Positions 1-18,978 of a stretch of 18,978 nt of DNA are shown here, one piece after another; position 1 is the stretch's first letter; each line of letters begins with the position of its first letter. A model generated the notes under the pieces. It was given only the letters and a program-made list of their open reading frames with translations. It did no database searches and was not told the DNA's origin. Position numbers and translations under genes: made by a program. The stretch lies in the IMG/VR virus record IMGVR_UViG_2657245081_000003. One strand, written 5' to 3'. The DNA comes from a virus (taxonomy: Duplodnaviria > Heunggongvirae > Uroviricota > Caudoviricetes).

Positions 1-1
1 A

Positions 2-346
2 CCGGTAGGCGATCTGGTCGTTGATTTGAGTCTGGATGCGGCCAGATTTGACGAGCAGATGGCCAGAGTCAGGCGTCATTTTTCCGGTACGGAAAGTGAT
101 GCGAAAAAAACAGCGGCAGTCGTTGAACAGTCGCTGAGCCGACAGGCGCTGGCTGCACAGAAAGCGGGGATTTCCGTCGGGCAGTATAAAGCCGCCATGC
201 GTATGCTGCCTGCACAGTTCACCGACGTGGCCACGCAGCTTGCAGGCGGGCAAAGTCCGTGGCTGATCCTGCTGCAACAGGGGGGGCAGGTGAAGGACTC
301 CTTCGGCGGGATGATCCCCATGTTCAGGGGGCTTGCCGGTGCGATC
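2..346 (+). CDS. H: Tail tape-measure protein H, N-terminal fragment (5' end outside window, 3' end cut by N gap)
   Basis: Translation PVGDLVVDLSLDAARFDEQMARVRRHFSGTESDAKKTAAVVEQSLSRQALAAQKAGISVGQYKAAMRMLPAQFTDVATQLAGGQSPWLILLQQGGQVKDSFGGMIPMFRGLAGAI is recognised from memory as the N-terminus of lambda gpH; the frame is open from position 2 and runs into the Ns. Confidence 0.85.
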
Positions 347-356
347 NNNNNNNNNN
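347..356. other. Assembly gap (10 N)
   Basis: Run of 10 n characters; the sequence context changes abruptly across it (H on + to the left, Rz on - to the right). Confidence 0.99.
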
Positions 357-803
357 AATGTATTCCTGAAGCGTTCTCAGTGCTGTTTGGTCGCGGATAA
401 TTCCGTCCCGGATATCGAGAACGTTTCGTCCAGCAACTGGAGAGAGTTCGACGGTGGCATCATTGCCCATGCCGGAGGCGCTGGAGGTTTCGGCAGAGGA
501 TGGCACAGGGCATTTTCCTTTGACGAGCACCCTGCCACCATTATCAAGCTTCCGCAGAAGAGCATCATTTTCAGCTTTCGCATCAGCTAACTCCTTCGTG
601 TATTTTGCATCGAGCGCAGCAACATCACGCTGACGCATCTGCATGTCAGTAATTGCCGCGTTCGCCAGCTTCAGTTCTCTGACATTTTTGTCGCGCTGGG
701 CTTTGTAGGTAATGGCGTTATCACGGTAATGATTAACAGCCCATGACAGGCAGACGATGATGCAGATAACCAGAGCGGAGATAATCGCGGTTACTCTGTT
801 CAT
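357..803 (-). CDS. Rz: Rz i-spanin (C-terminal end lost in gap)
   Basis: Translation [40 protein letters not shown]... has an N-terminal TM anchor and a coiled-coil-rich periplasmic part, matching lambda Rz at the N-terminus and diverging after AENDAL. Its ATG (803-801) overlaps the endolysin TGA (802-800) in an ATGA arrangement. The ORF runs into the Ns at about the expected Rz length (~153 codons). Confidence 0.8.
377..583 (-). CDS. Rz1: Rz1 o-spanin lipoprotein, embedded in the +1 frame of Rz
   Basis: Translation [21 protein letters not shown]...[16 protein letters not shown] has a signal peptide with lipobox VAGC and a proline-rich mature part, nested inside Rz as in lambda and phage 21. 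Confidence 0.75.
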
Positions 804-1297
804 TGCTGACCCCACAAACAGATTTCACGCTCAATCTCACGACGAGTCATGAGACCTTTCCATTGCTTACCGCCAGCATATGTCCAGCGACGTAGCTGAT
901 CACATGCGTCTTTGATATCGCCCTTGTTTATTTTGCGAAGAAGCGTCGATGTTCTGAAATTGCCAGCACCCACGTTGTAAACGAATGAGTAAAGAGCGCC
1001 GCGCATTGTTTCCGGTATATCGACTTTGATGTACGGGTTAATTTGTCTGGCGACCGTGGCAAGGTCTTTATTCAGGAGGGCTTTGCATTCTGCTTTGGTA
1101 TACGTTTTACCGAGCATGATGTCTTTTCCTGTATGCCCGTGACATACAGTCCATACACCAACAATATCTTTGTATGGTATGTAGCTGACACCTTCCAGAC
1201 CATCGTTACCACTTGGGCCAGTAATTAACACTGATGCTATAGCAATTGCTCCGCCACCAATAGCAGCAGCAACGGCTTTTCGTAATGATGGAGGCAT
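800..1297 (-). CDS. R: SAR endolysin (phage-21 R-type lysozyme, GH24 muramidase with N-terminal signal-anchor-release domain)
   Basis: Translation [44 protein letters not shown]...[18 protein letters not shown] matches phage 21 R / DLP12 RrrD from memory. The glycine/alanine-rich weakly hydrophobic N-terminus is a typical SAR domain. Its ATG overlaps the holin stop (TAATG). Confidence 0.9.
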
Positions 1298-1512
1298 TAT
1301 TCACCTCTCGCAGCCTTGCGCTTATCTTCTTTAATCTTGAAATAAAGGTTTGTCAGGTACGTCAGCAGGCCAAATACCAGGCTACCCAGCACACCTATTG
1401 CTGCCCACTGTGAGGGCGTGACTTTATCGAGCAGCTGTAAAAACCAGTAACCGGCACTACCTGCTGAGGTGCCATAGGCGACACCCGTTGTTAACTTATC
1501 CATGGATTTCAT
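1297..1512 (-). CDS. S: Pinholin (S21-type class II holin) with dual-start motif
   Basis: Translation [71 protein letters not shown] has two TM segments and a charged C-terminus. The two in-frame starts Met1-Lys-Ser-Met4 are the S21-71/S21-68 antiholin/holin arrangement. SD GAGGTGG lies immediately upstream. The longer track ORF begins at a TTG. Confidence 0.85.
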
Positions 1513-2099
1513 AACCCCACCTCGCAGACAAAGCGGGTGTAAATTGAGGGAATACAACGTATCGCAAAAAAGCAGAAACGTAACAGACTCGGAGTCAGTG
1601 AATAACTCAGGTATTGGGTTATCAGCTAATATCGAGACTCAAAAAATGGAAAAATCCGCTCGACGGCGGGTTTAAGCTGTGTGACGAAGTAACCACTCTT
1701 AACAGCATAACCAATTTTTTACGTACGTAAACCACTAAATGATATTTGCGAGAATGCTACCGAGTATTGAAAACACCACTACAAATACATAAGCAAATCT
1801 CAACAAATAACCAACAAATAATTTCCAGCGTTATTTTTAGCTGGTTTAAATTGAATCTTCAAATTATAGAGCACTTATAAATAACAGCCATTAATATAAA
1901 TTGGCTAATAGATTTATTTTTATTCAGCCAAGAGCCATGAATAGGATTCGATAGAAAAAGTTCAGATAAAAATAGAGATCTACTTCACAAATCAAATGAG
2001 AAACCAAAACTTACATCTTGAAATAATCACATTGATTAGATGAATATTTATCGCGCAGTGACATCATTTTTTAATAATAGTTCAAAAAAAGGGCTCACG

Positions 2100-3182
2100 A
2101 TGAAAAAATTAACAGTGGCAATTTCTGCTGTAGCTGCATCAGTACTGATGGCGATGTCTGCTCAGGCAGCTGAAATTTATAATAAAGACAGTAACAAGCT
2201 GGATCTGTACGGGAAAGTTAATGCTAAGCACTACTTCTCCTCTAATGATGCAGATGATGGTGATACTACTTATGCCCGTCTTGGCTTCAAAGGTGAAACC
2301 CAAATCAACGATCAACTGACTGGTTTCGGTCAGTGGGAATATGAATTCAAAGGCAACCGCGCTGAATCTCAAGGTTCCTCCAAAGATAAAACCCGTCTTG
2401 CCTTCGCTGGCCTGAAATTCGGTGACTACGGCTCCATCGATTATGGCCGTAACTACGGTGTAGCATACGATATTGGTGCATGGACCGACGTTCTGCCAGA
2501 ATTCGGTGGCGATACCTGGACCCAAACAGATGTATTCATGACTGGTCGCACCACAGGTGTTGCAACTTATCGTAACAATGACTTCTTTGGTCTGGTTGAT
2601 GGTCTGAACTTTGCTGCTCAGTATCAGGGTAAAAATGACCGCACTGACGTAACTGAAGCTAATGGTGATGGTTTCGGTTTCTCCACTACTTATGAGTATG
2701 AAGGATTCGGTGTAGGTGCAACCTATGCTAAATCTGACCGCACTAATAATCAGGTTATCTACGGTAACAACAGCCTGAATGCATCTGGTCAAAATGCTGA
2801 AGTATGGGCAGCTGGTCTGAAATATGATGCGAACAACATCTATCTGGCTACCACCTATTCTGAAACCCAGAACATGACTGTTTTTGGTAATAACCATATT
2901 GCCAACAAAGCACAAAACTTCGAAGTAGTTGCACAATATCAGTTCGACTTCGGTCTGCGTCCGTCCGTTGCTTACCTGCAATCTAAAGGAAAAGACTTGG
3001 GTGCGTGGGGTGATCAGGACTTGGTTGAATATATTGATGTAGGTGCAACCTATTACTTCAACAAAAATATGTCCACTTTTGTTGATTACAAAATCAACCT
3101 GATTGATAAGAGCGATTTCACGAAAGCATCTGGCGTTGCTACCGATGATATCGTTGCTGTAGGTATGGTTTACCAGTTCTAA
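2100..3182 (+). CDS. nmpC: Outer-membrane general porin, phage-encoded Lc/NmpC type (OmpC/OmpF/PhoE family)
   Basis: Translation [47 protein letters not shown]... ...VGMVYQF has a signal peptide ending AQA, a porin-family body and a C-terminal aromatic residue (F) typical of beta-barrel OMPs. It sits between Q and S on the opposite strand, as nmpC does in DLP12. Start chosen at ATG 2100 (AGGG SD) rather than the track's 2040. Confidence 0.9.
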
Positions 3183-3197
3183 TTTGATTACTAAAAG

Positions 3198-3231
3198 ATA
3201 TGTTGCGGGAGGCTTTGCCTCCCCAACATAT
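3198..3231. terminator. Long imperfect hairpin (15-bp stem, one bulge, 3-nt loop) downstream of porin gene; on the - strand it is followed by CUUUU and is a candidate tR'-like terminator of a short Q-side transcript
   Basis: ATATGTTGCGGGAGGC-TTT-GCCTCCCCAACATAT read directly; the reverse complement of the right arm equals the left arm minus one C. Confidence 0.45.
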
Positions 3232-3318
3232 AAGTGGCTCCCTCAAGCCACTTCCTTTAGGAGCACAACCTTGCTTCTAACTATATAAACCTTCTGTTAT
3301 ATATTACCCTTTATTTTT

Positions 3319-3343
3319 GGGGGCGTCTCAACGCCCCATTTTT
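3319..3343 (+). terminator. Rho-independent terminator (GGGGCG-tctcaa-CGCCCC followed by ATTTTT) for + strand transcription (porin gene)
   Basis: Perfect 6-bp GC-rich stem plus T-tract read directly; lies between the convergent porin and Q genes. Confidence 0.55.
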
Positions 3344-3370
3344 AATAACTTTTAGTAAATAATTGGCGTA

Positions 3371-3754
3371 TTAATTAGAGTTATTAACAACGATATCCAT
3401 CTCTAACCGGATATCTAATGCCATTAACATCCCTTCAATTATGCCCTCAGCCTTCTGTAACCTTTTCCCGATATAACCATCAGAGCAGCAATGCTTACCT
3501 GCCAGTGACATGAATGTCATACCGACTACATAATAATCTACTAATAAATCGTGCAAATCGCTGTTGTTCTTTTTCAGACGGGCCATGCACCCGCAAATGA
3601 TCATCGCGTCATCGTCACAACATTGCGGGCGAGATTTTACTTTTGAAGTAATTAATCCCTTAAAACCGGCGGCAATGGACGACCAGGTCACATCTTCATG
3701 ATTATTAGCCGCCCACGCTCCCCAACGCTCAAGAACCATCTGAATATCACGCAT
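3371..3754 (-). CDS. Q: Late-gene antiterminator Q (phage 21/82 - DLP12 QuuD type)
   Basis: Translation [64 protein letters not shown]... matches DLP12 QuuD from memory, with cysteine-rich zinc-binding motifs. The ATG at 3754 is preferred over the upstream TTG at 3769. Confidence 0.85.
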
Positions 3755-3839
3755 CAACTTACTCCACAAAAATCAGACCAGAACGCCAATTACAAGCAAA
3801 AATCAACAAAACAGTATTAGTTGATTGTTATCTCTGACT

Positions 3840-3962
3840 TCATACTCCTGCTCCTGTCAGGGTTTTGGCGTAATTCTTCAGTATTCGGTAATCGGTCAAA
3901 ACAGAACCGGGGAAACGATATAAGCGCAGACGCCCCCAGCGGTGGCGAAGACGTTCTGCCAT
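3840..3962 (-). CDS. Small basic protein, YlcG-like (40 aa), between rusA and Q
   Basis: Hand translation MAERLRHRWGRLRLYRFPGSVLTDYRILKNYAKTLTGAGV. The position corresponds to ylcG of DLP12. No clear SD; below the track's length cutoff. Confidence 0.35.
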   Translation of the reverse strand: MAERLRHRWGRLRLYRFPGSVLTDYRILKNYAKTLTGAGV

Positions 3963-3976
3963 ATAAAACTCAAACA

Positions 3977-4339
3977 TCATTCATTCCCCATTTCGGTGAT
4001 GGTCAGTTCCAGCCTCCCACCTTTGGTAACAGGCATCTTCACAACGCGGTAATCAACGACCTGAGCATCATCCAGCCAGAAACCTGCTTTAGTGAGTGCG
4101 TCAAAAGCGGCTTTTTGCAGATTATCCAGGTCACGGCGACGGCGATCCGGCATGTGGCACTCAATGCGGATTTTCACAGGCATAGCCAGGCCGATATCCA
4201 GCATTGCGTTTTTAATGATTCGGGCGACGTTATCGCGGTATGCCTGCCCCTCTGCGCTGACGTGCGTGCGCCCGCGATTATGGCGGTAATAGCGATTATT
4301 GCTCGGAGGCCAGGGTAATGTGATGCTGTAGGTATTCAC
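3977..4339 (-). CDS. rusA: Holliday-junction resolvase RusA
   Basis: Translation [120 protein letters not shown] matches DLP12 RusA from memory. GTG start. Confidence 0.9.
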
Positions 4340-4626
4340 GCCTTAATAACCCCCTCTTTCAGCCAGATAACCTGTGTTCTCGCCATACCTTCCAGCGCGC
4401 ATTCTTTTGCATATGCAGCATCGACAAAATGTGTGCGGCGGTCGATTTCGTCGTGGCAGGCAGAACATGCAATGGTGGCAATCAGGTCTGGCGGTTTGGT
4501 ACCGGTGCCGCACAATCCAGTCAGCCGGATATGTGCCAGTACAGACGTTTCAGGGTTGCCATTACATACGCCAGGGATTCTTACCTGGCATTCCCGACTA
4601 CGCGCTGCTTTTCTCAAATCAGCCAT
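4336..4626 (-). CDS. ybcO: YbcO-family protein (DUF1364, putative nuclease; cysteine-cluster)
   Basis: Translation [64 protein letters not shown]... matches DLP12 YbcO from memory. The ATG at 4626 overlaps the ninE stop. Confidence 0.8.
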
Positions 4627-4789
4627 GATTCCTCCTTGCTGCCAGTCGCAACCATTTTTTATCAACCAGGCTGGCGGTATATCCGAGCAGTGTTGGTATT
4701 TCGGAAGGCTTCAGCTCCGGTTTACGCTTACGACGATCTGGTACTCTGTAGATGTGTCCGTTCATGACACGAATAAGCGGTGTAGCCAT
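4619..4789 (-). CDS. ninE: NinE-family small protein (56 aa)
   Basis: Hand translation [56 protein letters not shown]. Its start overlaps the ybcN stop (TAATG) and its stop overlaps the ybcO start. Not in the ORF track because it is under 60 aa. Confidence 0.75.
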   Translation of the reverse strand: MATPLIRVMNGHIYRVPDRRKRKPELKPSEIPTLLGYTASLVDKKWLRLAARRNHG

Positions 4790-5244
4790 TACGCCTCCTG
4801 CTTGTCGCGGAGCAGCTGGAACTCGCAGCTCTGCGGAATAGTCAGGTGGCAGCCAATATTCACCGCCCAGGCTTCAACCTTACACAGGAAGACATACATC
4901 TCTCCGGTATCAAGATCGGAGGTATGGCGTAACGACTGGATAGTGGTGATATCACCGGTTACGACATCAACCAGGTCTTTGGTTTCATAACCGAGATATG
5001 TGTGTTTGAGAGCATCTTTTACCCAAGCTGGAGTGGCGAACGTTTTACCCTTGCTGATGAGGTATTCACTGATTTCGCTGTACCACATGTGGCTGAGTGC
5101 ATTCTGGGAAAGACTGCGTCTCTCGCGCCACGGTTTAAGCACCATGCGAAAGCATTTGCCGTCCTCCAGATAAGGCTGGATCTGCCGACCGATAGCGGTG
5201 AAGTTACCGCGATGCAATTTGATACCATCTTGTGGGAGGTTCAC
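4789..5244 (-). CDS. ybcN: NinB/YbcN-family protein (recombination-associated, DNA-binding)
   Basis: Translation [62 protein letters not shown]... matches DLP12 YbcN from memory; the RSLSQN..LW motif is shared with lambda NinB. Confidence 0.8.
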
Positions 5245-5409
5245 GCTTCACCTCCGCAGAGGTCAAACGTTGGATGCAAGATATCGCAGGTGCATTTCTG
5301 CATCTGTGACTGGTTGAAAGGTGTTCTGATTGTCGTTTGCACTTTGAGTCCCCTCAAAGCGCAGAAGTCACCGGAGTTGTTCAGGCTCCGATGACATGAT
5401 TATGGCGAG

Positions 5410-5427
5410 TTGATTATGATGAATCAA
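5410..5427. promoter_or_regulatory. Perfect 18-bp palindrome TTGATT-atgatg-AATCAA about 95 bp upstream of the 472-aa gene; candidate operator/promoter element (TTGATT could double as a -35)
   Basis: Read directly; the 6-bp arms are exact reverse complements. No binding protein is known. Confidence 0.3.
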
Positions 5428-5519
5428 TAGGTTCTTATGTCAAATGAACACTAGATCCAAAGGAGGGTAACAATTATCATAGCCAATGAGATTAATCTCA
5501 TTTTTAATAAGGAAATTTC

Positions 5520-6938
5520 ATGAAATATTTCTCAACTGGTTTTTATGTTTCAAACTCCACATCTCTAGCTGAGATCTTTAATGAATGTTTTTCTTGGGTA
5601 AACGACTCACCACATACAACTTTTATTCCAGCACAATTAGTATGTGATTATAAAAGCGAGGAGTACTTCATAGAGTCTAAAAATGAAAGAATTGATATAA
5701 TAACTTATAAAAACAAAGATACTAGTTTAGGCTGTTTTAGGTATTCGAAAATATCTGAGCCACACAAATGGGTAACAGATATTTCAATTAATAAAAATCT
5801 CAAAACTGATACCATGTGGATTCAGGTGGAATCTAGCGTTGTAAGCCAAGATGCAGCTTATCTAGCCCCGCAACCTAAGAAACCATTAGTTGTTATGAGA
5901 TTGATTGATAAATTTTCTGGTGGTCTTGATGATATTTTCAAGGTGTCAGTCGAACCTCATTCCTTAGATGATACTGATGAACATTTAAATATAGCAGCTA
6001 AAGTTATAAATGGTGAAACTGACAACAGACTACCAATAATATACGTTAGCTCCAAGTATTTTTTTAATGAACATGCTCACAATATCATCCCAGAACGCCT
6101 TGCAAGAAAGGTATGCGGATTAGCACATGTATTAATTGAGCCTAGCAATAGACTATTTTCTATTAAGCTAAAAAATGAGACAAATGCTAAAAATGCCTAT
6201 GCTGGTGCTGTTGGTATCTATTGGCCACGGGGTCAAAATATCAGTTTTTATCGCCGTGGTGAGAAAACCGCAAAAGAATTTGAAGATGAGTTATTTGATG
6301 ATGTTGTAAGAGCTACGACTACAATGGCTCCTGTCTCAGATAGTGGATGGAGTGAGATACAAACCAGAAAAACGAAAGACTCTATTAACTCACTCAAAGA
6401 AAGAGGAGAATACACACGCGAACTGATGGCGCTTTACGAAGCCGATAATGTTGCGAAAGATGACCAAATAGAAGATCTTAAGCATAAGATCTCCTCTTTA
6501 GAGCACAGAGTACGCACTCTTCAATCACAAGCTTCAGCCCAAGGAAGCATTGTGCTTAATGCTGGTGAAGAGACTGATTTTTTTGATGGAGAAATCAAAA
6601 ATATAATTATTGACGCACTAAAAACTGCCATAAAAAATAAAAATGAATTTGGTAGAAGCTACCATATCTTATCATCCCTAATTGCCAATAATGAATACAA
6701 TAAAGAAACCGAGAGTCGCCGCCAATTACTTAAAAGGACTTTAACAGGTTACAGAAGCATGGATAGCGCAACACAAAGAAATTTAAAGGACTTAGGTTTC
6801 AGTGCGTCAAGCGATGGAAAACACTGGAAGTTAACATATAATGAAGACCCTCGATATTCCTATATTTTACCTAAAACAGGAAGTGACCACAGAGGTTCTT
6901 TAAATGCTATCTCGGATATAGCAAACATTATTTTCTAA
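5520..6938 (+). CDS. Hypothetical protein, 472 aa, no recognisable family; AT-rich accessory gene (moron), candidate phage-defence or exclusion function
   Basis: Long uninterrupted ORF with SD AAGGA 7 nt upstream of the ATG and strongly AT-biased codons unlike the neighbours. It is on the strand opposite to the surrounding operon and is followed by a perfect hairpin. A predicted coiled-coil segment is present (ELMALYEADNVAKDDQIEDLKHKISSLEHRVRTLQSQ). No Walker A or other motif recognised by eye. Confidence 0.75.
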   Translation: MKYFSTGFYVSNSTSLAEIFNECFSWVNDSPHTTFIPAQLVCDYKSEEYFIESKNERIDIITYKNKDTSLGCFRYSKISEPHKWVTDISINKNLKTDTMWIQVESSVVSQDAAYLAPQPKKPLVVMRLIDKFSGGLDDIFKVSVEPHSLDDTDEHLNIAAKVINGETDNRLPIIYVSSKYFFNEHAHNIIPERLARKVCGLAHVLIEPSNRLFSIKLKNETNAKNAYAGAVGIYWPRGQNISFYRRGEKTAKEFEDELFDDVVRATTTMAPVSDSGWSEIQTRKTKDSINSLKERGEYTRELMALYEADNVAKDDQIEDLKHKISSLEHRVRTLQSQASAQGSIVLNAGEETDFFDGEIKNIIIDALKTAIKNKNEFGRSYHILSSLIANNEYNKETESRRQLLKRTLTGYRSMDSATQRNLKDLGFSASSDGKHWKLTYNEDPRYSYILPKTGSDHRGSLNAISDIANIIF

Positions 6939-6946
6939 TAAATTTC

Positions 6947-6972
6947 AATAGCACTCACAAATGAGTGCTATT
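6947..6972. terminator. Perfect hairpin (11-bp stem AATAGCACTCA / TGAGTGCTATT, 4-nt loop) between convergent ORFs; likely bidirectional terminator
   Basis: Read directly; lies 9 nt after the stop of the 472-aa gene and 18 nt after the stop of the opposing small ORF. Confidence 0.6.
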
Positions 6973-6989
6973 GTTGCCACTGAATTACT

Positions 6990-7244
6990 CTATTTAAATT
7001 CAACTTTTATCCCTTTGTTTAGCAGGGCATCAGAAACTGCCTTTTTTGTAACATTTATCCCTGCAAGCAATGCTTTATGCATTGGTCCCTTAAAAATTTC
7101 TACTTCTTCTTCAGTGAGTTTAGGCAATGTAATATAAATAACATCTTTCATCTGCTTGTTTTTATAGCATGAGCTTCTTGTGTGCTTACAATCGATATTT
7201 TCTTTATTTCCCAAAACATCATCCCCTTTATAATTCAGTTCCAC
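6990..7244 (-). CDS. Hypothetical small lysine-rich protein (84 aa from GTG; 53 aa if started at the internal ATG at 7151)
   Basis: AT-rich ORF convergent with the 472-aa gene. No convincing SD at either start; C-terminal half MKDVIYITLPKLTEEEVEIFKGPMHKALLAGINVTKKAVSDALLNKGIKVEFK looks protein-like. May not be a real gene. Confidence 0.3.
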   Translation of the reverse strand: MELNYKGDDVLGNKENIDCKHTRSSCYKNKQMKDVIYITLPKLTEEEVEIFKGPMHKALLAGINVTKKAVSDALLNKGIKVEFK

Positions 7245-7308
7245 ACATCAATTATTTAGTTATCACGAATGTCGTAAAACTAAAATTAGTAACAATAATT
7301 GCTCATAC

Positions 7309-7596
7309 CTACTCTCTTCCATATAAAGCCAACACCCGCTTCATCGCGGCACTTTGACGACACTCCTTAAAAATCAGATTCGTGCTCACCTTTCCTTCCC
7401 GTTCTTCTCTGGTAGCGAACCGGTAATACACCGTTCGCCAGACCTTACCATCAACGACCAGGATTCCTGACCGCGCCATTTTAGCCGCAGCCTGATTTAT
7501 GCTGGTTACGGTTGCGCCTGTTACCGCGGCAACGTCCTGCGCACAGAAGTTCTTATGAGTCCCCAGGTAATGAATAATTGCCTCTTTGCCCGTCAT
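7309..7596 (-). CDS. ren: Ren protein (lambda ren-like; Rex exclusion resistance)
   Basis: Translation MTGKEAIIHYLGTHKNFCAQDVAAVTGATVTSINQAAAKMARSGILVVDGKVWRTVYYRFATREEREGK... matches lambda Ren from memory. Overlaps the P stop as in lambda. Confidence 0.85.
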   Translation of the reverse strand: MTGKEAIIHYLGTHKNFCAQDVAAVTGATVTSINQAAAKMARSGILVVDGKVWRTVYYRFATREEREGKVSTNLIFKECRQSAAMKRVLALYGRE

Positions 7597-8294
7597 ACAC
7601 TTGCTCCTTTCAGCCCAAACTTCGCTTTGATTTCTGCGATCTTCGCCAGAGCCTGAACACGATTAAGCGGTCTCCCGCCCATGACAGGAAGTTGTTTTAC
7701 TGGTTCAGGTATCGCCTCACCACGGTTAATTCGCGCTGTCATACAGGCCAGTTCATCGGCAGCCTTGCGCCGTAATTCCGCATCAGTCAGCGCATTGGCC
7801 CGCATGTTCTGATACAGGTTGGTAACCAGCCAGTAGTGCGCGTTTGATTTCCACGGATAAGACTCTGCATCTGGATACAGGCCACGTTTCCGGCAATACT
7901 CGTAAACCATATCAACCAGCTCGCTGGCGTTTGGCAGCCCGGCGGTAACGGATGCTTCTTCCCGGCACCAGGCAACAAACTGCCCGGGTGATGGCAGGAA
8001 TGGTCGATTCTGCCGACGGGCTACGCGCATTCCTGCGTTAACCTGTTCCATCGTGGTGATCCCGTTTTCCCGGAAAGCCAGAACCCACTGGCGGCGGATT
8101 TCGTTCAGTTCGTTCTGGTCCCGGTTAGCCAGGCTCGCCGGGAAAGTTGCCAGTAACTGGCTGAACACACCATTGATGATCTGCGCTACCTGTTGTACCT
8201 GCGGCTTTTCGTCGTACTGTTCCGGCATGTTGTTGGCGATCCGGCGCATCTGCTCACGGTCAAAGTTAACCATCTGTGCGGCGATGTTTTTCAT
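7593..8294 (-). CDS. P: Replication protein P (DnaB helicase loader)
   Basis: Translation MKNIAAQMVNFDREQMRRIANNMPEQYDEKPQVQQVAQIINGVFSQLLATFPASLANRDQNELNEIRRQWVLAFRENGITTMEQVNAGMRVARRQNRPF... ...AKFGLKGASV is near-identical to lambda P from memory (233 aa). Confidence 0.95.
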   Translation of the reverse strand: MKNIAAQMVNFDREQMRRIANNMPEQYDEKPQVQQVAQIINGVFSQLLATFPASLANRDQNELNEIRRQWVLAFRENGITTMEQVNAGMRVARRQNRPFLPSPGQFVAWCREEASVTAGLPNASELVDMVYEYCRKRGLYPDAESYPWKSNAHYWLVTNLYQNMRANALTDAELRRKAADELACMTARINRGEAIPEPVKQLPVMGGRPLNRVQALAKIAEIKAKFGLKGASV

Positions 8295-9220
8295 AAATCC
8301 ACCCCGTAAATCCAGTCAGTGTTTGTCAGGTCGAGTTTTGATTTTCCGGCTATCACGCCAGCCTGTTGCTTGTTACGGTTGATTTCGAGTTGGGTCCACT
8401 TGTCGCGGAGTTTGGCCGGACTTAGCACGTTACCGGACCAGAAGTTGTCCTGGCATGCCCAGCGGAACAGCACGCACATGTCGCGGTGGTTACGGCCGTC
8501 ACGTTCACGCATCAGGCGGATATCGTTAGCCCACCCTGCAAAATTCGGTTTTCTGGCTGATGGCGCGATGGTCTTCACCATGTCAAACATCCACTCTGCG
8601 GCGGTCAGGTCTTCTGCTGTCCCCCACCTGCTGCCGCTCTGAATTGCAGCATCTGGTTTCTCCACAGGAAGATCGTTTTCTGGTTGGTCAGAGGATTCGC
8701 CAGAATTCTCGGACGAAAAAGGTTTTATATTGTCTTTTGTTAGTTTGTATTTTGTGTTTACCTGATTCGGGTAAGTGCCTTTACCTGATTTGGGTAAACT
8801 TTTCTTACCTGATTCAGGTAAATTTACCTCTTTCAGGTAAACTTTATTTTTCTTACCTGATTCGGGTAATGTTGACCATTCACTGACCACATTATTAATG
8901 CCGATATTCCGCCCGCTCTGAATAAAAATCCCACGCTTTACCAGAACACTTTTTGCAGCAGAACACTTGTGCGGCAATATCCCGGTCAACTCGGAAAGTT
9001 GCTCGTTGCTCACCCAATCCAGTTTTTTATTAAAGCCATATGTTTTGCGCATGACAGCCAGGAAGACCAGAAGCTGGTGCTGTGTTAATCCGGCCAGCAT
9101 CACAGCTTCCAGCAACTCATTTGCAATGCGCGTATAACCATCATCGAGATCTGCCACGCGCGGCTCCTTTTGTGCCGCATCCGGCACTGGAAAATTGAAT
9201 ATCTCAGCAGTGTTTGCCAT
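8291..9220 (-). CDS. O: Replication initiator O (origin-binding protein); the gene contains the origin iterons
   Basis: Start chosen at MANTAEIFNFPVPD... (ATG 9220, SD GGGAGG upstream) rather than the longer track ORF. The C-terminal half ...AAEWMFDMVKTIAPSARKPNFAGWANDIRLMRERDGRNHRDMCVLFRWACQDNFWSGNVLSPAKLRDKWTQLEINRNKQQ... is lambda-O-like from memory. The repeated LPESGKK peptide is encoded by the iterons. Confidence 0.9.
   Translation of the reverse strand: MANTAEIFNFPVPDAAQKEPRVADLDDGYTRIANELLEAVMLAGLTQHQLLVFLAVMRKTYGFNKKLDWVSNEQLSELTGILPHKCSAAKSVLVKRGIFIQSGRNIGINNVVSEWSTLPESGKKNKVYLKEVNLPESGKKSLPKSGKGTYPNQVNTKYKLTKDNIKPFSSENSGESSDQPENDLPVEKPDAAIQSGSRWGTAEDLTAAEWMFDMVKTIAPSARKPNFAGWANDIRLMRERDGRNHRDMCVLFRWACQDNFWSGNVLSPAKLRDKWTQLEINRNKQQAGVIAGKSKLDLTNTDWIYGVDL
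8748..8859. repeat. Origin of replication iterons: five ~17-bp dyad-symmetric repeats (consensus TTACCTGATTCGGGTAA) inside the O gene, flanked by an AT-rich tract (8700-8747)
   Basis: Copies start at 8748, 8771, 8795, 8814 and 8843 (TTACCTGATTCGGGTAA, TTACCTGATTTGGGTAA, TTACCTGATTCAGGTAA, TTACCTCTTTCAGGTAA, TTACCTGATTCGGGTAA). Relative to O transcription the AT-rich region is downstream of the iterons, as in ori-lambda. Confidence 0.8.
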
Positions 9221-9306
9221 AATTCCTCCCGCAATGAGTGTGTTACGATTTGCACCTGAAAGTCGGTTCTGTTCCCGCAGACCGACTTTCGCCATTTCTG
9301 AACCTG

Positions 9307-9846
9307 TCATATTGCCCCCAGCATGGTGGTCACCATCGCCATTAATGGACCAGCCAGATCCGGGTCCACACGAAACATCGACACAATACCTTCACTCATT
9401 TCCTTCAGTTTCTGGTGGCGTGGTGCGTTGAGAATGACAGCCTGTTTTGCCTCACTGAGTTCCTTTTCCATTTCAGCCAACCGAGTCATGAAGCTATCCT
9501 GCTCAACCAGGTAACCGCGATATTCCAGCGGTAGTACCGCCAGAATTGCCGGGGTCAGTTCACGCACGTTATTTCGGTATTTTTCAGAATCGAATTTGTT
9601 ATCGAGGAAGCGGAACAGCTTCTGGCGTGCACGGCTGACATCATCAGGGAAATCGATGGTGCCGTCGCCCTGCTCCCGATACTCATTCACAATGAGTGCG
9701 GCAACGACATCCTGATTATCTACAGCCGACCAGGCGCGGACGGCATCACGGATTTTTTCGTGGCCTGGAGCTTGTTTTGTTTGAGAACGATTTATCACCG
9801 CAGTCGGAATAAATCCGCTAGTCTGTTGGTATGTAAGTGGTTGCAT
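9307..9846 (-). CDS. Regulator at the cII position (179 aa); possibly a YdaT-like functional analogue of CII
   Basis: Strong SD AAGGAG 7 nt upstream of the ATG. Located between cro and O where lambda has cII, but about twice cII's size and not lambda-CII-like in sequence. The YdaT assignment is inferred from the YdaS-like cro upstream and is not verified. Confidence 0.55.
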   Translation of the reverse strand: MQPLTYQQTSGFIPTAVINRSQTKQAPGHEKIRDAVRAWSAVDNQDVVAALIVNEYREQGDGTIDFPDDVSRARQKLFRFLDNKFDSEKYRNNVRELTPAILAVLPLEYRGYLVEQDSFMTRLAEMEKELSEAKQAVILNAPRHQKLKEMSEGIVSMFRVDPDLAGPLMAMVTTMLGAI

Positions 9847-9915
9847 AATTGACTCCTTTAGTTTGAATTGACTGTTAAGTTGATTGCTTATTGTTAAAGA
9901 GCGTGAAATGGAAAT

Positions 9916-10146
9916 TTAAGCTGCGTTCTTTTCGGTGTGTGGAAACAACTTCGGAAGATCCGGGCGAATCTGGTATGCCTTCACAACTCCACCAGTAGCC
10001 GTAACAATGCTGCCGACATGTTCAGGGGATACCTTTGCTTTGTTGTGAAGCCACTTATAGACGGCCTGCTGTGAAACTTCGCAGGCATCGCCTAGTTTCT
10101 TTTGTGAACCAACGATATTGATCGCTGTTTTGATTGCTGGGTTCAT
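9916..10146 (-). CDS. cro: Cro-like repressor (YdaS/DUF1019-type HTH)
   Basis: Translation MNPAIKTAINIVGSQKKLGDACEVSQQAVYKWLHNKAKVSPEHVGSIVTATGGVVKAYQIRPDLPKLF... has the HTH core GSQKKLGDACEVSQQAVYKW. Divergent from cI across the operator region; SD GGAGG. Confidence 0.8.
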   Translation of the reverse strand: MNPAIKTAINIVGSQKKLGDACEVSQQAVYKWLHNKAKVSPEHVGSIVTATGGVVKAYQIRPDLPKLFPHTEKNAA

Positions 10147-10250
10147 AACAACCTCCGTGGTTAATCCGAATAAAGATTAAAACTATGGTTGTTTTTAGTC
10201 AACAACCATTTTCGTTTGATGAAATAAAACCTTGGTTGTACATTTGATCT
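10147..10250. promoter_or_regulatory. Immunity control region (OR): divergent pR/pRM candidates and operator palindromes
   Basis: Palindrome ATGGTTGTT-N7-AACAACCAT at 10185-10209, with further GGTTGT/ACAACC half-sites at 10147-10160 and 10233-10240. Candidate pR on the - strand: -35 TTGACT (10197-10202), 17-bp spacer, -10 TAATCT (10174-10179). Candidate pRM on the + strand: -35 TTGATG (10216-10221), -10 TACATT (10239-10244), which would give a leaderless cI mRNA starting at the ATG, as for lambda pRM. Confidence 0.55.
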
Positions 10251-10940
10251 ATGAAAACAACACTCTCAGAAAGACTTAAAGAAGCCAGATTAGCGCGAGG
10301 CCTTACACAAAAGGCGCTTGGGGATTTGGTCGGGGTTAGCCAGGCTGCTATTCAGAAAATCGAAACAGGGAAAGCTAACCAAACAACTAAAATCGTGGAG
10401 ATCGCGAACGCTTTGGGTGTGCGCGCAGAATGGTTATCTTCTGGCGTTGGAAATATGTCAGACAGTACAGTGCAACCAATACAATCAACTGTCAGCCATT
10501 CCAAATACTTCAAAATTGACGTTCTTGATATAGAAGTCAGTGCCGGGCCAGGTGTAATCAACCGTGAGTTTGTAGAAGTTCTACGCTCGGTTGAGTACTC
10601 GTTTGACGATGCTCGTCACATGTTCGATGGCAGGAAGGCGGAAAATATCCGCATCATTAACGTGCGAGGTGACAGCATGTCAGGGACGATCGAACCAGGT
10701 GACCTGCTGTTCGTTGATATCACTGTTAAATCTTTCGACGGTGATGGCATCTATGCGTTTCTGTACGACGACACTGCCCATGTAAAACGTCTTCAAATGA
10801 TGAAGGATAAGCTGCTGGTTATCTCTGATAACAAGAGCTACTCGCCGTGGGACCCGATCGAGAAAGACGAGATGAACCGGGTGTTCATATTCGGTAAGGT
10901 CATTGGAAGCATGCCGCAGACGTACAGGAAGCATGGTTAA
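10251..10940 (+). CDS. cI: CI prophage repressor (N-terminal HTH, C-terminal LexA-like S24 autopeptidase domain)
   Basis: Translation MKTTLSERLKEARLARGLTQKALGDLVGVSQAAIQKIETGKANQ... has an HTH, then a linker, then the S24 motifs RGDSMSGTIEPGDLLFVD and HVKRL (Ser/Lys dyad). Confidence 0.9.
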   Translation: MKTTLSERLKEARLARGLTQKALGDLVGVSQAAIQKIETGKANQTTKIVEIANALGVRAEWLSSGVGNMSDSTVQPIQSTVSHSKYFKIDVLDIEVSAGPGVINREFVEVLRSVEYSFDDARHMFDGRKAENIRIINVRGDSMSGTIEPGDLLFVDITVKSFDGDGIYAFLYDDTAHVKRLQMMKDKLLVISDNKSYSPWDPIEKDEMNRVFIFGKVIGSMPQTYRKHG

Positions 10941-11148
10941 TTTATCTACGACTTAAGGGAGCGAAGGTTAAGGTTTATACCACTCGGATTAGATATTGCA
11001 CTAAATTCTCTATAAGAACGCCAAATCTGTTTGCATATTTCAGTAAATATTCTCGTTGTTAGCTGAGATTTGTTGCTACTGTCAGCAAAATGTCCCCCTA
11101 TCTCGTAGCGGTTTTTATTTCGAATCATTATGTTAAGATGTTTCTGAT

Positions 11149-11154
11149 TATAAT
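11149..11154 (+). promoter_or_regulatory. Perfect -10 hexamer TATAAT 16 bp upstream of the lipoprotein ATG (candidate independent promoter; -35 weak)
   Basis: Read directly. No good -35 at 17 bp, so activity is uncertain; the gene could instead be co-transcribed with cI. Confidence 0.3.
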
Positions 11155-11169
11155 GAATGGAAACATAAA

Positions 11170-11550
11170 ATGAGAAAAATCCTAATCGCTGCCATGATGG
11201 CATCTGTATTGGCTGGGTGTGCTTCTTCAGGCAACCAGCAACTCAAAAATGAAACTGAAATTAGTGTCCAGTCTAAACTTCAGGAAGGTAAAACAACCAA
11301 GAATGAGGTTAAATCTTACTTTGGTTCTCCTGATGCTGTTTCATATACTGACAGTGGAAACGAGATCTGGAAGTACGCCTTTGCAAAAGTAAAAGTTAAT
11401 GGCACCACTTTTATTCCATTCTATGGATTATTCCATAATGGAACGAACGGTACGAAAAAAGAACTTACTATTCTTTTTAACGATGACACGATTAAGAAAT
11501 ACACAATGTCAGAAACCCAAATAAACTCGAAATCAGGTTGGGCTGACTGA
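11170..11550 (+). CDS. Lipoprotein (126 aa), AT-rich moron at the rexAB position downstream of cI; possible BamE/SmpA-OmlA-like fold; candidate superinfection-exclusion factor
   Basis: Translation MRKILIAAMMASVLAGCASSGNQQ... has a signal peptide with lipobox LAGC; the mature part is hydrophilic. Followed directly by a rho-independent terminator. Confidence 0.75.
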   Translation: MRKILIAAMMASVLAGCASSGNQQLKNETEISVQSKLQEGKTTKNEVKSYFGSPDAVSYTDSGNEIWKYAFAKVKVNGTTFIPFYGLFHNGTNGTKKELTILFNDDTIKKYTMSETQINSKSGWAD

Positions 11551-11753: not shown

Positions 11754-11860
11754 TAAATTCATCGCAACGACACAACGATACGGTAACCACCTGTTTCACC
11801 GTTGCGATGACCGCTTAGATCCGCAGTTTGAATTTCAGCAGGCTTCGGGGAGTGCGAGGG

Positions 11861-12238
11861 GTGAAACGGACGCGTGAACGTCGGTGTGACCAGCTGAAAT
11901 CAACACAACACTTTATACCTCAGTCGCTTCAACGAGGCGGCTTAGTTATGACAACCGGCGGCCATCCACCGCCTGAATACGCGCAGAAGTCTCTATATGT
12001 TCAGCAGCCCAGCTTACGGGCAGGAGTTTTTATGGTTCATCAACATTACGGAACGCAGACCGTTAATCGCGGTGCGGTCATGCCAGGAATGCTGGTCAAA
12101 CACAAAGATGGTACCTGGACTGCATCAGCTAATTTACGCGGACGGCTTTATCTGCATCGCGGCATCGAGCGCACTTATACCCGTGATTTGCTCGTAGAAG
12201 TTTTTCTCGACGGACGCGGTAACGGCCTGAATCACTAA
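11861..12238 (+). CDS. N-position early protein, putative N-like antiterminator (GTG start; alternative ATG start at 11948 gives 96 aa)
   Basis: First gene downstream of candidate pL. From GTG 11861 (SD GGGGAG 9 nt upstream) the N-terminus is [13 protein letters not shown], an arginine-rich stretch resembling the N-protein ARM (lambda TRRRERR). The rest is not recognisably N-like. Confidence 0.4.
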
Positions 12239-15243: not shown

Positions 15244-15846
15244 TCATTCAGTATCATCACGCGCGGTCTGTGCATATGTCACTACCGCACCTAATATATT
15301 AATTTTCTTTTCAACATAGATAATATTATCGTACTCATAATTGCCATACGGATAGCAAATGCGAATATTCTCATGTAGATCGGGGTCATCCACCTCAGCT
15401 CCAGAACAACTTTTTGAACTACCGGAAGTATACCGATACGGTGCAACGTAAGACGATGTCTCTCCAGGCAAAAAATAAGTTAGTGTCGTAAGGGGTATAA
15501 TCAGAAAAAATCCAGCAAATATGCACATCCCTGCATAAACCTTAAGGTATGCTGACAGACTCTTCCAGCCGCTTTGTTTTACTATCCCCTTCTTAACCCA
15601 AAACAGAGATAACAGAAAAGCTATTCCCATGCTAAACAGAATGTAATAGTGGGATATACTCTGATTAAGAAACGTGACCCTGTAGATATCTGCCCGCCAC
15701 CAGAAGAAAAGGAAAATAAAGATCAGCCCTGAAACTGTCATGCAAATCAAATAAGGATACGAATCTTTTTTCATGTTTAGCGCCCATAAAATTTTTCCTG
15801 ACCCGGACAAATTTACCATCCATTTTTTGCGCAGAAAATAGCTCAT
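15244..15846 (-). CDS. Hypothetical membrane protein (about 3 TM helices plus a C-terminal soluble domain), AT-rich, opposite strand to the early-left operon; candidate exclusion/accessory gene
   Basis: Hydrophobic segments PYLICMTVSGLIFIFLFFWW, YYILFSMGIAFLLSLFWV and YAGMCIFAGFFLIIPLTTLTYFL. The exact start is uncertain (three in-frame ATGs, none with a strong SD). It occupies the place where lambda has ea22/ea8.5. Confidence 0.6.
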   Translation of the reverse strand: MSYFLRKKWMVNLSGSGKILWALNMKKDSYPYLICMTVSGLIFIFLFFWWRADIYRVTFLNQSISHYYILFSMGIAFLLSLFWVKKGIVKQSGWKSLSAYLKVYAGMCIFAGFFLIIPLTTLTYFLPGETSSYVAPYRYTSGSSKSCSGAEVDDPDLHENIRICYPYGNYEYDNIIYVEKKINILGAVVTYAQTARDDTE

Positions 15847-16051
15847 TACTTACTGCACAATAATACACAAAATTGCGTAAATTTTTTGCATGGATTTTAG
15901 CTCTTTCAGCCGACATTTAAGGGGTAAATAGCATTTCCTAAAAGCAACTGCACCAACCCAACAGAATGGGCTACCGCTTACGTTGAGAGCAAAAAAGTGT
16001 ATAGCAGCAATGAACAGCATCCTCGCACTGACGAGGATTTCTTTTATCTGA

Positions 16052-16073
16052 ACTCGCTACGGCGAGTTTTTTT
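16052..16073 (+). terminator. Rho-independent terminator-like hairpin (ACTCGC-tacg-GCGAGT + TTTTTTT)
   Basis: Read directly, in the non-coding remnant region between the membrane-protein gene and xis. Confidence 0.45.
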
Positions 16074-16245
16074 ATGGAGATGATAAATGCACTTCCGAGT
16101 CACAGGTGAATAGAATGGAGAACCATTCAACAGAGTTATCGAAGCCGAGAACATCAGCGACTGCTATGACCACTGGATGCTGTGGGCGCAGATAGCACAT
16201 GCAGACGTAACCAATATTCGAATTGAAGAACTGAAAGAACACCAA

Positions 16246-16267
16246 GCCGCCTGATGGCGGTTTTTTC
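16246..16267 (+). terminator. Rho-independent terminator-like hairpin (GCCGCC-tgat-GGCGGT + TTTTTTC) immediately upstream of xis
   Basis: Read directly; 6-bp stem including one G-U pair, followed by a T-tract. Confidence 0.5.
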
Positions 16268-16293
16268 TTGCGTGTAATTGCGGAGACTTTGCG

Positions 16294-16512
16294 ATGTACT
16301 TGACACTTCAGGAGTGGAACGCTCGCCAGCGACGCCCAAGAAGCCTTGAAACAGTTCGTCGATGGGTGCGCGAATGCAGGATATTCCCTCCTCCGGTTAA
16401 GGATGGAAGAGAATATCTGTTCCACGAATCAGCGGTAAAGGTTGACTTAAATCGACCAGTAACAGGTAGCCTTTTGAAGAGGATCAGAAATGGGAAGAAG
16501 GCGAAGTCATGA
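16294..16512 (+). CDS. xis: Excisionase Xis (lambda-type)
   Basis: Translation MYLTLQEWNARQRRPRSLETVRRWVRECRIFPPPVKDGREYLFHESAVKVDLNRPVTGSLLKRIRNGKKAKS is near-identical to lambda Xis from memory; overlaps the int start by 23 nt as in lambda. Confidence 0.95.
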   Translation: MYLTLQEWNARQRRPRSLETVRRWVRECRIFPPPVKDGREYLFHESAVKVDLNRPVTGSLLKRIRNGKKAKS

Positions 16513-17560
16513 GCGCCGGGATTTACCCCCTAACCTTTATATAAGAAACAATGGATATTACTGCTACAGGGACCCAAGGACGGGTAAAGAGTTTGGATTA
16601 GGCCGAGACAGGCGAATCGCAATCACTGAAGCTATACAGGCCAACATTGAGTTATTTTCAGGACACAAACACAAGCCTCTGACAGCGAGAATCAACAGTG
16701 ATAATTCCGTTACGTTACATTCATGGCTTGATCGCTACGAAAAAATCCTGGCCAGCAGAGGAATCAAGCAGAAGACACTCATAAATTACATGAGCAAAAT
16801 TAAAGCAATAAGGAGGGGTCTGCCTGATGCTCCACTTGAAGACATCACCACAAAAGAAATTGCGGCAATGCTCAATGGATACATAGACGAGGGCAAGGCG
16901 GCGTCAGCCAAGTTAATCAGATCAACACTGAGCGATGCATTCCGAGAGGCAATAGCTGAAGGCCATATAACAACAAACCCTGTCGCTGCCACTCGCGCAG
17001 CAAAATCAGAGGTAAGGAGATCAAGACTTACGGCTGACGAATACCTGAAAATTTATCAAGCAGCAGAATCATCACCATGTTGGCTCAGACTTGCAATGGA
17101 ACTGGCTGTTGTTACCGGGCAACGAGTTGGTGATTTATGCGAAATGAAGTGGTCTGATATCGTAGATGGATATCTTTATGTCGAGCAAAGCAAAACAGGC
17201 GTAAAAATTGCCATCCCAACAACATTGCATGTTGATGCTCTCGGGATATCAATGAAGGAAACACTTGATAAATGCAAAGAGATTCTTGGCGGAGAAACCA
17301 TAATTGCATCTACTCGTCGCGAACCGCTTTCATCCGGCACAGTATCAAGGTATTTTATGCGCGCACGAAAAGCATCAGGTCTTTCCTTCGAAGGGGATCC
17401 GCCTACCTTTCACGAGTTGCGCAGTTTGTCTGCAAGACTCTATGAGAAGCAGATAAGCGATAAGTTTGCTCAACATCTTCTCGGGCATAAGTCGGACACC
17501 ATGGCATCACAGTATCGTGATGACAGAGGCAGGGAGTGGGACAAAATTGAAATCAAATAA
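16490..17560 (+). CDS. int: Integrase Int (lambda-type tyrosine recombinase), intact
   Basis: The 356-aa translation MGRRRSHERRDLPPNLYIRNNGYYCYRDPRTGKEFGLGRDRRIAITEAIQANIELFSGHKHKPL... ...HLLGHKSDTMASQYRDDRGREWDKIEIK is essentially lambda Int. Confidence 0.97.
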   Translation: MGRRRSHERRDLPPNLYIRNNGYYCYRDPRTGKEFGLGRDRRIAITEAIQANIELFSGHKHKPLTARINSDNSVTLHSWLDRYEKILASRGIKQKTLINYMSKIKAIRRGLPDAPLEDITTKEIAAMLNGYIDEGKAASAKLIRSTLSDAFREAIAEGHITTNPVAATRAAKSEVRRSRLTADEYLKIYQAAESSPCWLRLAMELAVVTGQRVGDLCEMKWSDIVDGYLYVEQSKTGVKIAIPTTLHVDALGISMKETLDKCKEILGGETIIASTRREPLSSGTVSRYFMRARKASGLSFEGDPPTFHELRSLSARLYEKQISDKFAQHLLGHKSDTMASQYRDDRGREWDKIEIK

Positions 17561-17660
17561 TGATTTTATTTTGACTGATAGTGACCTGTTCGTTGCAACA
17601 AATTGATAAGCAATGCTTTTTTATAATGCCAACTTAGTATAAAAAAGCAGGCTTCAACGG
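17561..17660. other. attL: attL (B-O-P'): lambda P' arm and 15-bp core in reverse orientation, then host B arm
   Basis: Core TTAGTATAAAAAAGC at 17634-17648 is the reverse complement of the lambda core GCTTTTTTATACTAA. The preceding ~70 bp reverse-complement to the lambda P' arm (...GTTGGCATTATAAAAAAGCATTGCTTATCAATTTGTTGCAACGAACAGGTCACTATCAGTCAAAATAAAATCA) as recalled from memory. Confidence 0.85.
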
Positions 17661-17694
17661 ATTCATTTTTCTATTTCATAGCCCGGAGCAACCT

Positions 17695-18978
17695 GTGAAC
17701 ACATTTTCAGTTTCCCGTCTGGCGCTGGCATTGGCTTTTGGCGTGACGCTGACCGCCTGTAGCTCAACCCCGCCCGATCAACGTCCTTCTGATCAAACCG
17801 CGCCTGGTACCTCTTCTCGCCCGATTCTGTCGGCAAAAGAAGCGCAGAATTTCGATGCTCAACACTATTTTGCATCCCTGACACCAGGTGCTGCAGCGTG
17901 GAATCCTTCCCCGATTACCCTGCCTGCGCAACCTGACTTTGTTGTCGGCCCGGCGGGCACTCAAGGTGTAACGCATACCACGATTCAGGCGGCGGTAGAT
18001 GCGGCAATTATCAAGCGTACCAACAAGCGCCAGTATATTGCCGTGATGCCTGGTGAGTATCAGGGAACGGTATATGTCCCTGCCGCTCCGGGTGGAATTA
18101 CTCTGTACGGTACAGGTGAAAAACCGATTGATGTGAAGATTGGGCTTTCCCTTGATGGTGGCATGAGCCCTGCCGACTGGCGTCACGACGTCAACCCGCG
18201 CGGCAAATATATGCCAGGTAAACCAGCGTGGTATATGTACGATAGCTGCCAGAGCAAACGCAGCGACAGTATCGGTGTTCTCTGCTCTGCGGTCTTCTGG
18301 TCACAAAACAATGGCCTGCAACTGCAAAATCTGACCATCGAAAACACGCTGGGCGATAGCGTAGATGCAGGTAACCATCCGGCGGTGGCACTGCGTACTG
18401 ATGGTGACCAGGTACAGATTAACAACGTTAACATTCTCGGTCGTCAGAACACCTTCTTTGTCACCAACAGCGGTGTGCAGAACCGTCTGGAAACGAATCG
18501 TCAGCCGCGTACGCTGGTGACCAACAGCTACATTGAAGGGGATGTGGATATCGTTTCTGGTCGCGGCGCAGTGGTGTTCGATAACACCGAATTCCGCGTG
18601 GTGAACTCACGTACTCAGCAAGAAGCGTATGTGTTTGCACCGGCTACGCTGTCCAACATTTACTACGGTTTCCTCGCCGTAAACAGCCGTTTCAATGCTT
18701 TCGGTGATGGTGTGGCGCAACTGGGCCGCTCGCTGGATGTTGATGCCAATACCAACGGTCAGGTGGTGATCCGTGATAGCGCCATCAACGAAGGTTTTAA
18801 CACGGCTAAACCGTGGGCCGATGCGGTGATCTCTAATCGTCCGTTTGCGGGTAATACCGGCAGCGTAGATGATAACGACGAAATACAGCGCAATCTGAAT
18901 GACACTAACTACAACCGCATGTGGGAATACAATAACCGCGGCGTGGGTAGTAAAGTGGTTGCAGAGGCGAAGAAGTAA
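17695..18978 (+). CDS. ybhC: Host lipoprotein YbhC (pectinesterase-family acyl-CoA thioesterase), flanking lambda attB
   Basis: GTG start; translation MNTFSVSRLALALAFGVTLTACSSTPPDQ... has a lipobox LTAC; 427 aa; GC-rich host-like codon usage; recognised from memory as E. coli YbhC, the gene next to attB-lambda. Confidence 0.93.
   Translation: MNTFSVSRLALALAFGVTLTACSSTPPDQRPSDQTAPGTSSRPILSAKEAQNFDAQHYFASLTPGAAAWNPSPITLPAQPDFVVGPAGTQGVTHTTIQAAVDAAIIKRTNKRQYIAVMPGEYQGTVYVPAAPGGITLYGTGEKPIDVKIGLSLDGGMSPADWRHDVNPRGKYMPGKPAWYMYDSCQSKRSDSIGVLCSAVFWSQNNGLQLQNLTIENTLGDSVDAGNHPAVALRTDGDQVQINNVNILGRQNTFFVTNSGVQNRLETNRQPRTLVTNSYIEGDVDIVSGRGAVVFDNTEFRVVNSRTQQEAYVFAPATLSNIYYGFLAVNSRFNAFGDGVAQLGRSLDVDANTNGQVVIRDSAINEGFNTAKPWADAVISNRPFAGNTGSVDDNDEIQRNLNDTNYNRMWEYNNRGVGSKVVAEAKK

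Follow-up and report, generated by a model that had tools for sequence, protein, structure and literature searches.

The junction at the left end of this stretch of DNA, where a piece of the tape-measure gene H on the plus strand faces the lysis gene Rz on the minus strand across a short run of N, is almost certainly an artefact of draft assembly that is absent from the chromosome, a reading to which we give a probability of about 96%. This is because: (i), there are no determined bases between H and Rz but only N, (ii), the contig ends coincide with repeat boundaries, (iii), sibling assemblies break in the same region and continue with differing partners and, (iv), the lineage has an independent assembly that runs on without interruption past the break point, with the standard neighbour next to Rz. 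An earlier interpretation made from the letters alone (the sequence-only reading) had hesitated between such a scaffolding artefact and a prophage made defective by a large deletion or inversion. The first possibility is borne out by the read-through in the parent and by the differing partners in the siblings, while the second finds no support, the parental sequence continuing to cosN and Nu1.

The whole stretch that was analysed, called the window below, measures 18,978 nucleotides and is contained in JRRM01000063.1, a record of 1,863,341 bp from assembly GCA_001413415.1 of E. coli RU1 MA4. Positions 117313-137810 of this record, reversed (locus L027), match window 1-11297 at 100%, the N run included. 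The first base of the window is the one that follows the gene T stop codon, and its last base coincides with the end of the ybhC stop codon. A published strain table assigns GCA_001413415.1 to RU1 MA4 and GCA_001413005.1 to the parent RU1 (PMC9638481). RU1 is a human stool isolate that was read by 454 and assembled with Newbler; MA1-12 are single clones obtained after 200 single-colony transfers, about 5,900 (5,888) generations; LB and BHI are evolved populations, and for all evolved lines the data consist of paired-end Illumina reads of 100 bp (PMC4263409). The main text and supplements of that study contain nothing on structural changes in MA4, on prophage deletions, or on the construction and contig ordering of the deposited assemblies (PMC4263409). 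The MA, LB and BHI draft series was deposited in October 2015 as megabase-size 'contig' records with N spacers.

The plus-strand piece at window 1-346 is the N-terminal H fragment that the sequence-only reading had recognized. It is open in frame 2 without stops (PVGDLVVDLSLDAARFDEQMARV...FRGLAGAI), shows 99.7% nucleotide identity to lambda J02459 10550-10895, inside the gene for the 853-aa H protein, and is 100% identical to phage 2H10. Its match to Pfam TMP_2 (1e-28, 100.6 bits for a cutoff of 30.2) identifies the product as a gpH tape-measure protein. Because T overlaps H by 8 nt in the prophage of strain JS01, the window starts at H nucleotide 9 and spans H codons 4-118 of 853. We rejected the idea that this piece is a 346-bp contig beginning at window base 1: the window was cut from a larger record, in which the H piece is the right end (346 bp) of a contig of 1,039 bp (L027 10952-11990) carrying partial G, T and H to codon 118, its leftward remainder falling outside the window. 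This contig has a 10-N run on either side. The second run (L027 11991-12000) lies 1,039 bp from the first, and beyond it stand gmhB, metNIQ, rcsF and proS, none of them prophage genes. The JS01 prophage, which occupies the same attachment site, has an H-T-G region with 97% identity to this contig. In LB12 (L024), the H contig extends beyond the equivalent of window 346, deeper into the gene, and H is thus not truncated in that line.

The 10-N run itself occupies 347-356 (NNNNNNNNNN), directly after the H fragment as had been described, and the window has no other run of N. Across the 14 RU1-project loci examined, each N run is exactly 10 N long and joins non-neighbouring DNA; the spacer at 347-356 carries no information on adjacency. 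When window 1-815 was searched against E. coli genomes and PLSDB, each half returned thousands of separate matches, but not one of the 5,426 complete E. coli genomes, and no PLSDB plasmid record, had the two halves in one place. A lambda cloning vector, a transducing phage and inter-prophage recombination were considered as origins of the join and rejected, as there is no determined junction sequence and the join is absent from these complete genomes and plasmids. Homologous exchange between prophages would moreover pair like with like, H with H and Rz with Rz.

A first alternative is a truly defective prophage. In this scenario, an inversion and/or a deletion in MA4 placed the inverted 5' part of H at the 3' end of Rz, with loss of cos and the head genes. 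The record as written does set the two pieces 10 N apart, and in a mutation-accumulation line such as MA4, drift over ~5,900 generations could fix rearrangements. We nevertheless find this scenario very improbable, for its junction consists only of N, no complete genome of the set searched displays it, and the H piece belongs to a contig of 1,039 bp bordered on its other side by the second 10-N run and the gmhB region, whereas an inversion or a deletion would have kept H contiguous with the tail genes. The related proposal that a rearrangement between lambdoid prophages in MA4 set an inverted G'-T-H' segment beside the Rz end, at a junction that the assembler then left unsequenced, strikes us as equally hard to credit.

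On the other side of the spacer, the minus-strand gene at 357-803 is Rz, of which 149 of 155 codons are present. Its match to Pfam Phage_lysis (5e-28, 98.3 bits for a cutoff of 25.4) covers profile positions 1-121 of 126 and, with the gene order S-R-Rz, identifies an i-spanin. The gap does cut the gene, as had been noted, but not in mid-Rz: only 21 nt (six codons and the stop) are lost at the contig end. The full protein in parent RU1 has 155 aa (...LQEYIRTQCLR*) and its shared part is identical to the window Rz.

The parental assembly reveals what follows Rz on the chromosome of this lineage and argues against a rearranged prophage. The parental contig (L031; JRRI01000036.1, 45.6 kb) is 100% identical to window 357-11297 (10,941 bp, 0 mismatches). 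Within a 13.4-kb stretch that was read without N, it runs past the position equivalent to 357 into the 3' end of Rz, a 50-aa ORF, Rha, DUF1398 and DUF3950, then reaches cosN (GGGCGGCGACCT), located at L031 13032, before Nu1 begins at L031 13221. LB7 (L033) is likewise contiguous through the break, and the read-through was therefore seen both in parent RU1 and in a sibling. Unrelated strains that encode an exact match to the 380-aa porin of this prophage also have standard layouts from Rz to Nu1. Head and packaging genes are present in the lineage, with Nu1, A, W and the portal gene in BHI7, and capsid E, H and pieces of J/I/K/L in the LB12 and MA1 assemblies. The RU1 lineage thus keeps cos, Nu1, A, W, portal, capsid and tail genes, owned by this prophage or its relatives, and does not display the lack of cos, packaging and head genes that marks a cryptic prophage.

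The layout beyond Nu1 can be read from JS01 and strain 120899, which are the nearest of the complete genomes that have a prophage at this site. In both, H and Rz are on the same strand, the 5' end of H is ~11.9 kb off, and cos, Nu1, A and the head genes lie in between. This agrees with the expectation of the sequence-only reading that lambda-rightward genes should be on the minus strand, with cos, Nu1, A and the head genes separating H from Rz, an expectation in keeping with int, the att core and ybhC at the right end of the window. The check that it had proposed, namely Rz followed by cos and Nu1 with H distant on the minus strand, gave a positive result for the first half in the RU1 454 assembly; for the second half, it did so only in the closest complete genomes. 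Indeed, a distant H on the minus strand was seen in no RU1-line assembly, and no contig was found that connects the H of this prophage with its other genes. We infer that MA4 itself shares the parental arrangement and that the H gene of this prophage would lie ~12 kb from Rz on the minus strand, as in the related complete genomes.

Why the contigs stop where they do may be understood from the sibling assemblies. Seven assemblies break within window 357-495, an interval of ~140 bp, and the DNA placed after the 10 N is different in each. The MA12 contig breaks at 357 and is followed by IS3/AraC genes, MA5 breaks at 433 (yfeA and nupC), MA7 at 429 (aceK), LB5 at 433 (IS66), LB12 at 431 (an IS element and nfrBA) and MA1 at 495, where the lysis genes of another prophage follow in inverted orientation. 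Position 357, the contig end in the window, is the last base that distinguishes two near-identical copies, after which 89 bp are identical: between the parent and the copy in BHI7, differences fall at the equivalents of window positions 415, 399, 395, 393, 387, 360 and 357, and the next one is found at 267. The window contig stops at 357 because this is the last base that tells the two copies apart, as a k-mer graph assembler behaves at repeats. That the Rz-side end falls on a repeat boundary, and that MA12 ends at the same base as MA4 with a different partner, further speaks against a chromosomal rearrangement. The BHI7 copy itself (L029 9782-15507, from lysis to packaging genes) shows 13 differences from the parent in ~800 bp and is without Rha. 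These differences are too many for 765 generations, and the copy must therefore represent a paralogous prophage or a chimeric population consensus.

A second boundary is formed by a 62-bp exact repeat at 433-494, which this Rz shares with its counterpart in another lambdoid prophage of the genome, and at the edges of which the contigs of five siblings end. The MA1 assembly (L030) has a contig that stops at 495 and a following one that begins at 433, the two overlapping by exactly 62 identical bases. In MA5, the segment 433-1528, which comprises S, R and the 5' part of Rz, is present at 100% identity over 1,096 bp in a second lambdoid prophage (L025 1-10865), whose upstream genes differ from those of the window and which carries DUF968, a 123-aa Q and an N6/N4 DNA methylase. 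The identity of 433-1528 in two co-resident prophages suggests a recent exchange of the lysis module. Further breaks occur inside Q: the BHI4, LB9, LB10 and LB5 assemblies, which are 100.000% identical to the window over >13 kb, all break within 65 bp (window 3708-3772), and after the 10 N each continues with a partner of its own, the asnB/tRNA cluster, yhdP, nanR or gltP. The far sides of these gaps end in a tRNA gene or a REP sequence. Four breaks within 65 bp of Q imply another repeat boundary common to a co-resident prophage. The strain thus carries at least two, and probably three, lambdoid prophages with identical stretches, and the short-read contigs stop at repeat edges because the co-resident prophages share these stretches.

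We thus propose that the short-read contigs of MA4 ended at the edges of repeats common to its lambdoid prophages, and that they would then have been chained one after the other, with a constant 10 N in between, into records of megabase size that do not follow the order of the chromosome. The 1,039-bp H contig would have fallen, in arbitrary orientation, between the gmhB-side contig and a contig of 18.6 kb or more that begins 21 nt before the end of Rz. On the chromosome, Rz would be complete and followed by Rha, DUF1398, DUF3950, cos and Nu1. One could imagine instead that the join records a true but distorted scaffold link, in which read pairs did connect nearby contigs and the scaffolder erred on orientation and gap size. 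Both pieces are lambdoid prophage DNA, the likeness of the H contig to the H-T-G region of a prophage at the same attachment site is consistent with such a link, and short contigs are readily flipped by scaffolders. However, the distance between Rz and the 5' end of H in the related complete genomes is outside the reach of a 100-bp paired-end library, the other neighbour of the H contig is the non-prophage gmhB region, and the 10-N joins of the siblings link clear non-neighbours, adjacent prophage pieces being even 2.1 Mb apart in one record in LB5. We therefore give this possibility very little weight and retain the arbitrary placement of unlinked contigs as the explanation of the join. The join resembles a rearranged phage because both contigs happen to be lambdoid prophage DNA.

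The remainder of the window is a lambda-like prophage that runs from right to left. Upstream of Rz on the minus strand are R (800-1297), encoding a 165-aa endolysin, and S (1297-1512), encoding a 71-aa holin of the Pfam family Phage_holin_2_1 (gene call L027 9786-10001), annotated as essD in relatives. The exact R protein occurs on 17 contigs, and the 10 that were listed are all from RU1-project assemblies. A porin gene of the OmpC/NmpC type (2040-3182, plus strand) is inserted between Q and S, against the direction of the late operon. It is annotated as OmpC or OmpD in relatives and measures 380 aa from the first ATG against 360 aa in the source gene call. After the porin come Q, with its break interval at 3708-3772, and the nin region, in which a 472-aa ORF (5520-6938) lies on the opposite strand, the plus strand. 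This ORF has no match to a Pfam family and a weak PADLOC match to the candidate defence family HEC-07 (1e-9), and 888 blocks of the collection contain its exact protein, which is thus carried by several different lambdoid prophages. It may be an anti-phage 'moron' gene.

Next in window order are ren, P, O and the YdaT-like and Cro/YdaS-like genes, and then the repressor. The repressor, a 229-aa S24-peptidase protein (10251-10940, plus strand), faces the 76-aa YdaS-type Cro-like gene. The immunity region (9307-10940) is not that of lambda, as the places of cro and cII are taken by the YdaS-type gene (76 aa) and by a gene with a YdaT domain (179 aa). A 126-aa ORF next to the repressor (11170-11550, plus strand) has a BamE-like match (1.6e-4) below the Pfam cutoff, and an ORF at 11828-12238 (plus strand) has no family assignment. 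After the repressor, kil, gam, bet, exo and further genes lead to xis. A 200-aa ORF without a family (15244-15846) is found on the opposite, minus strand between a TraR-like gene and xis. The lambda-type integrase (16490-17560, plus strand, 356 aa) matches Phage_integrase (2e-40) and Arm-DNA-bind_1 (7e-33). The attL core (GCTTTTTTATACTAA, 17634-17648, minus strand) is identical to the lambda att core, with one exact match in the window and none in 200 shuffles. It is followed by ybhC (17695-18978, plus strand), the host gene that flanks the lambda attachment site and is so annotated in the closest genomes, to which window 16035-18978 (int, attL and ybhC) is 99.4% identical.

The practical lesson is that N spacers in megabase-size draft records of this kind do not imply adjacency, and that truncations, inversions or 'defective prophages' deduced across such spacers are unreliable. 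Prophage surveys should enter it under the lambda-like prophages at attB-lambda, with a late region that runs off the end of a contig, and not under the cryptic elements. The junction is a caution on drafts only and has no bearing on phage biology.

Compared with known systems, the junction is an ordinary draft gap, neither a real feature nor a novel one. It has all the properties of a fixed-length N-spacer gap in a short-read draft: a 10-N run, contiguity in an independent parental assembly, varying partners, and ends on repeats such as tRNA genes, REP sequences, rRNA-operon flanks, IS elements or shared prophage segments. No difference from such gaps was found, the sole oddity being that both of the joined contigs are lambdoid prophage. 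The second possibility raised by the sequence-only reading implied an element of the kind of DLP12, Rac and Qin, the cryptic prophages of K-12, in which morphogenetic genes have been lost. Late-region names of the DLP12 type (essD, rrrD, quuD, ybcN, ybcO, rusA and ninE) do appear in the annotations of relatives. However, there is no deletion junction here: the RU1 parent runs into cos and Nu1, and A, W, portal, capsid and tail genes are found among the siblings.

The element itself compares with the lambda prophage, whose attB lies between ybhC and ybhB/bioA. The two share a lambda-type int, xis and the att core beside ybhC, the cosN and Nu1 sequences downstream in the parent, and a nearly identical H fragment (99.7%). 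The gene order is kept as well, from int through exo-bet-gam-kil to the repressor and the cro-like gene, then O-P-ren, nin, Q and S-R-Rz. The window differs from lambda in its immunity genes (the 229-aa S24 repressor and the YdaS/YdaT-type genes), in the porin between Q and S, in the 472-aa opposite-strand ORF of the nin region and in the 3' half of Rz, and a Rha gene is found between Rz and cos in the RU1 parent. The lambda attachment site is thus occupied here by a lambda-like prophage of an ordinary kind.
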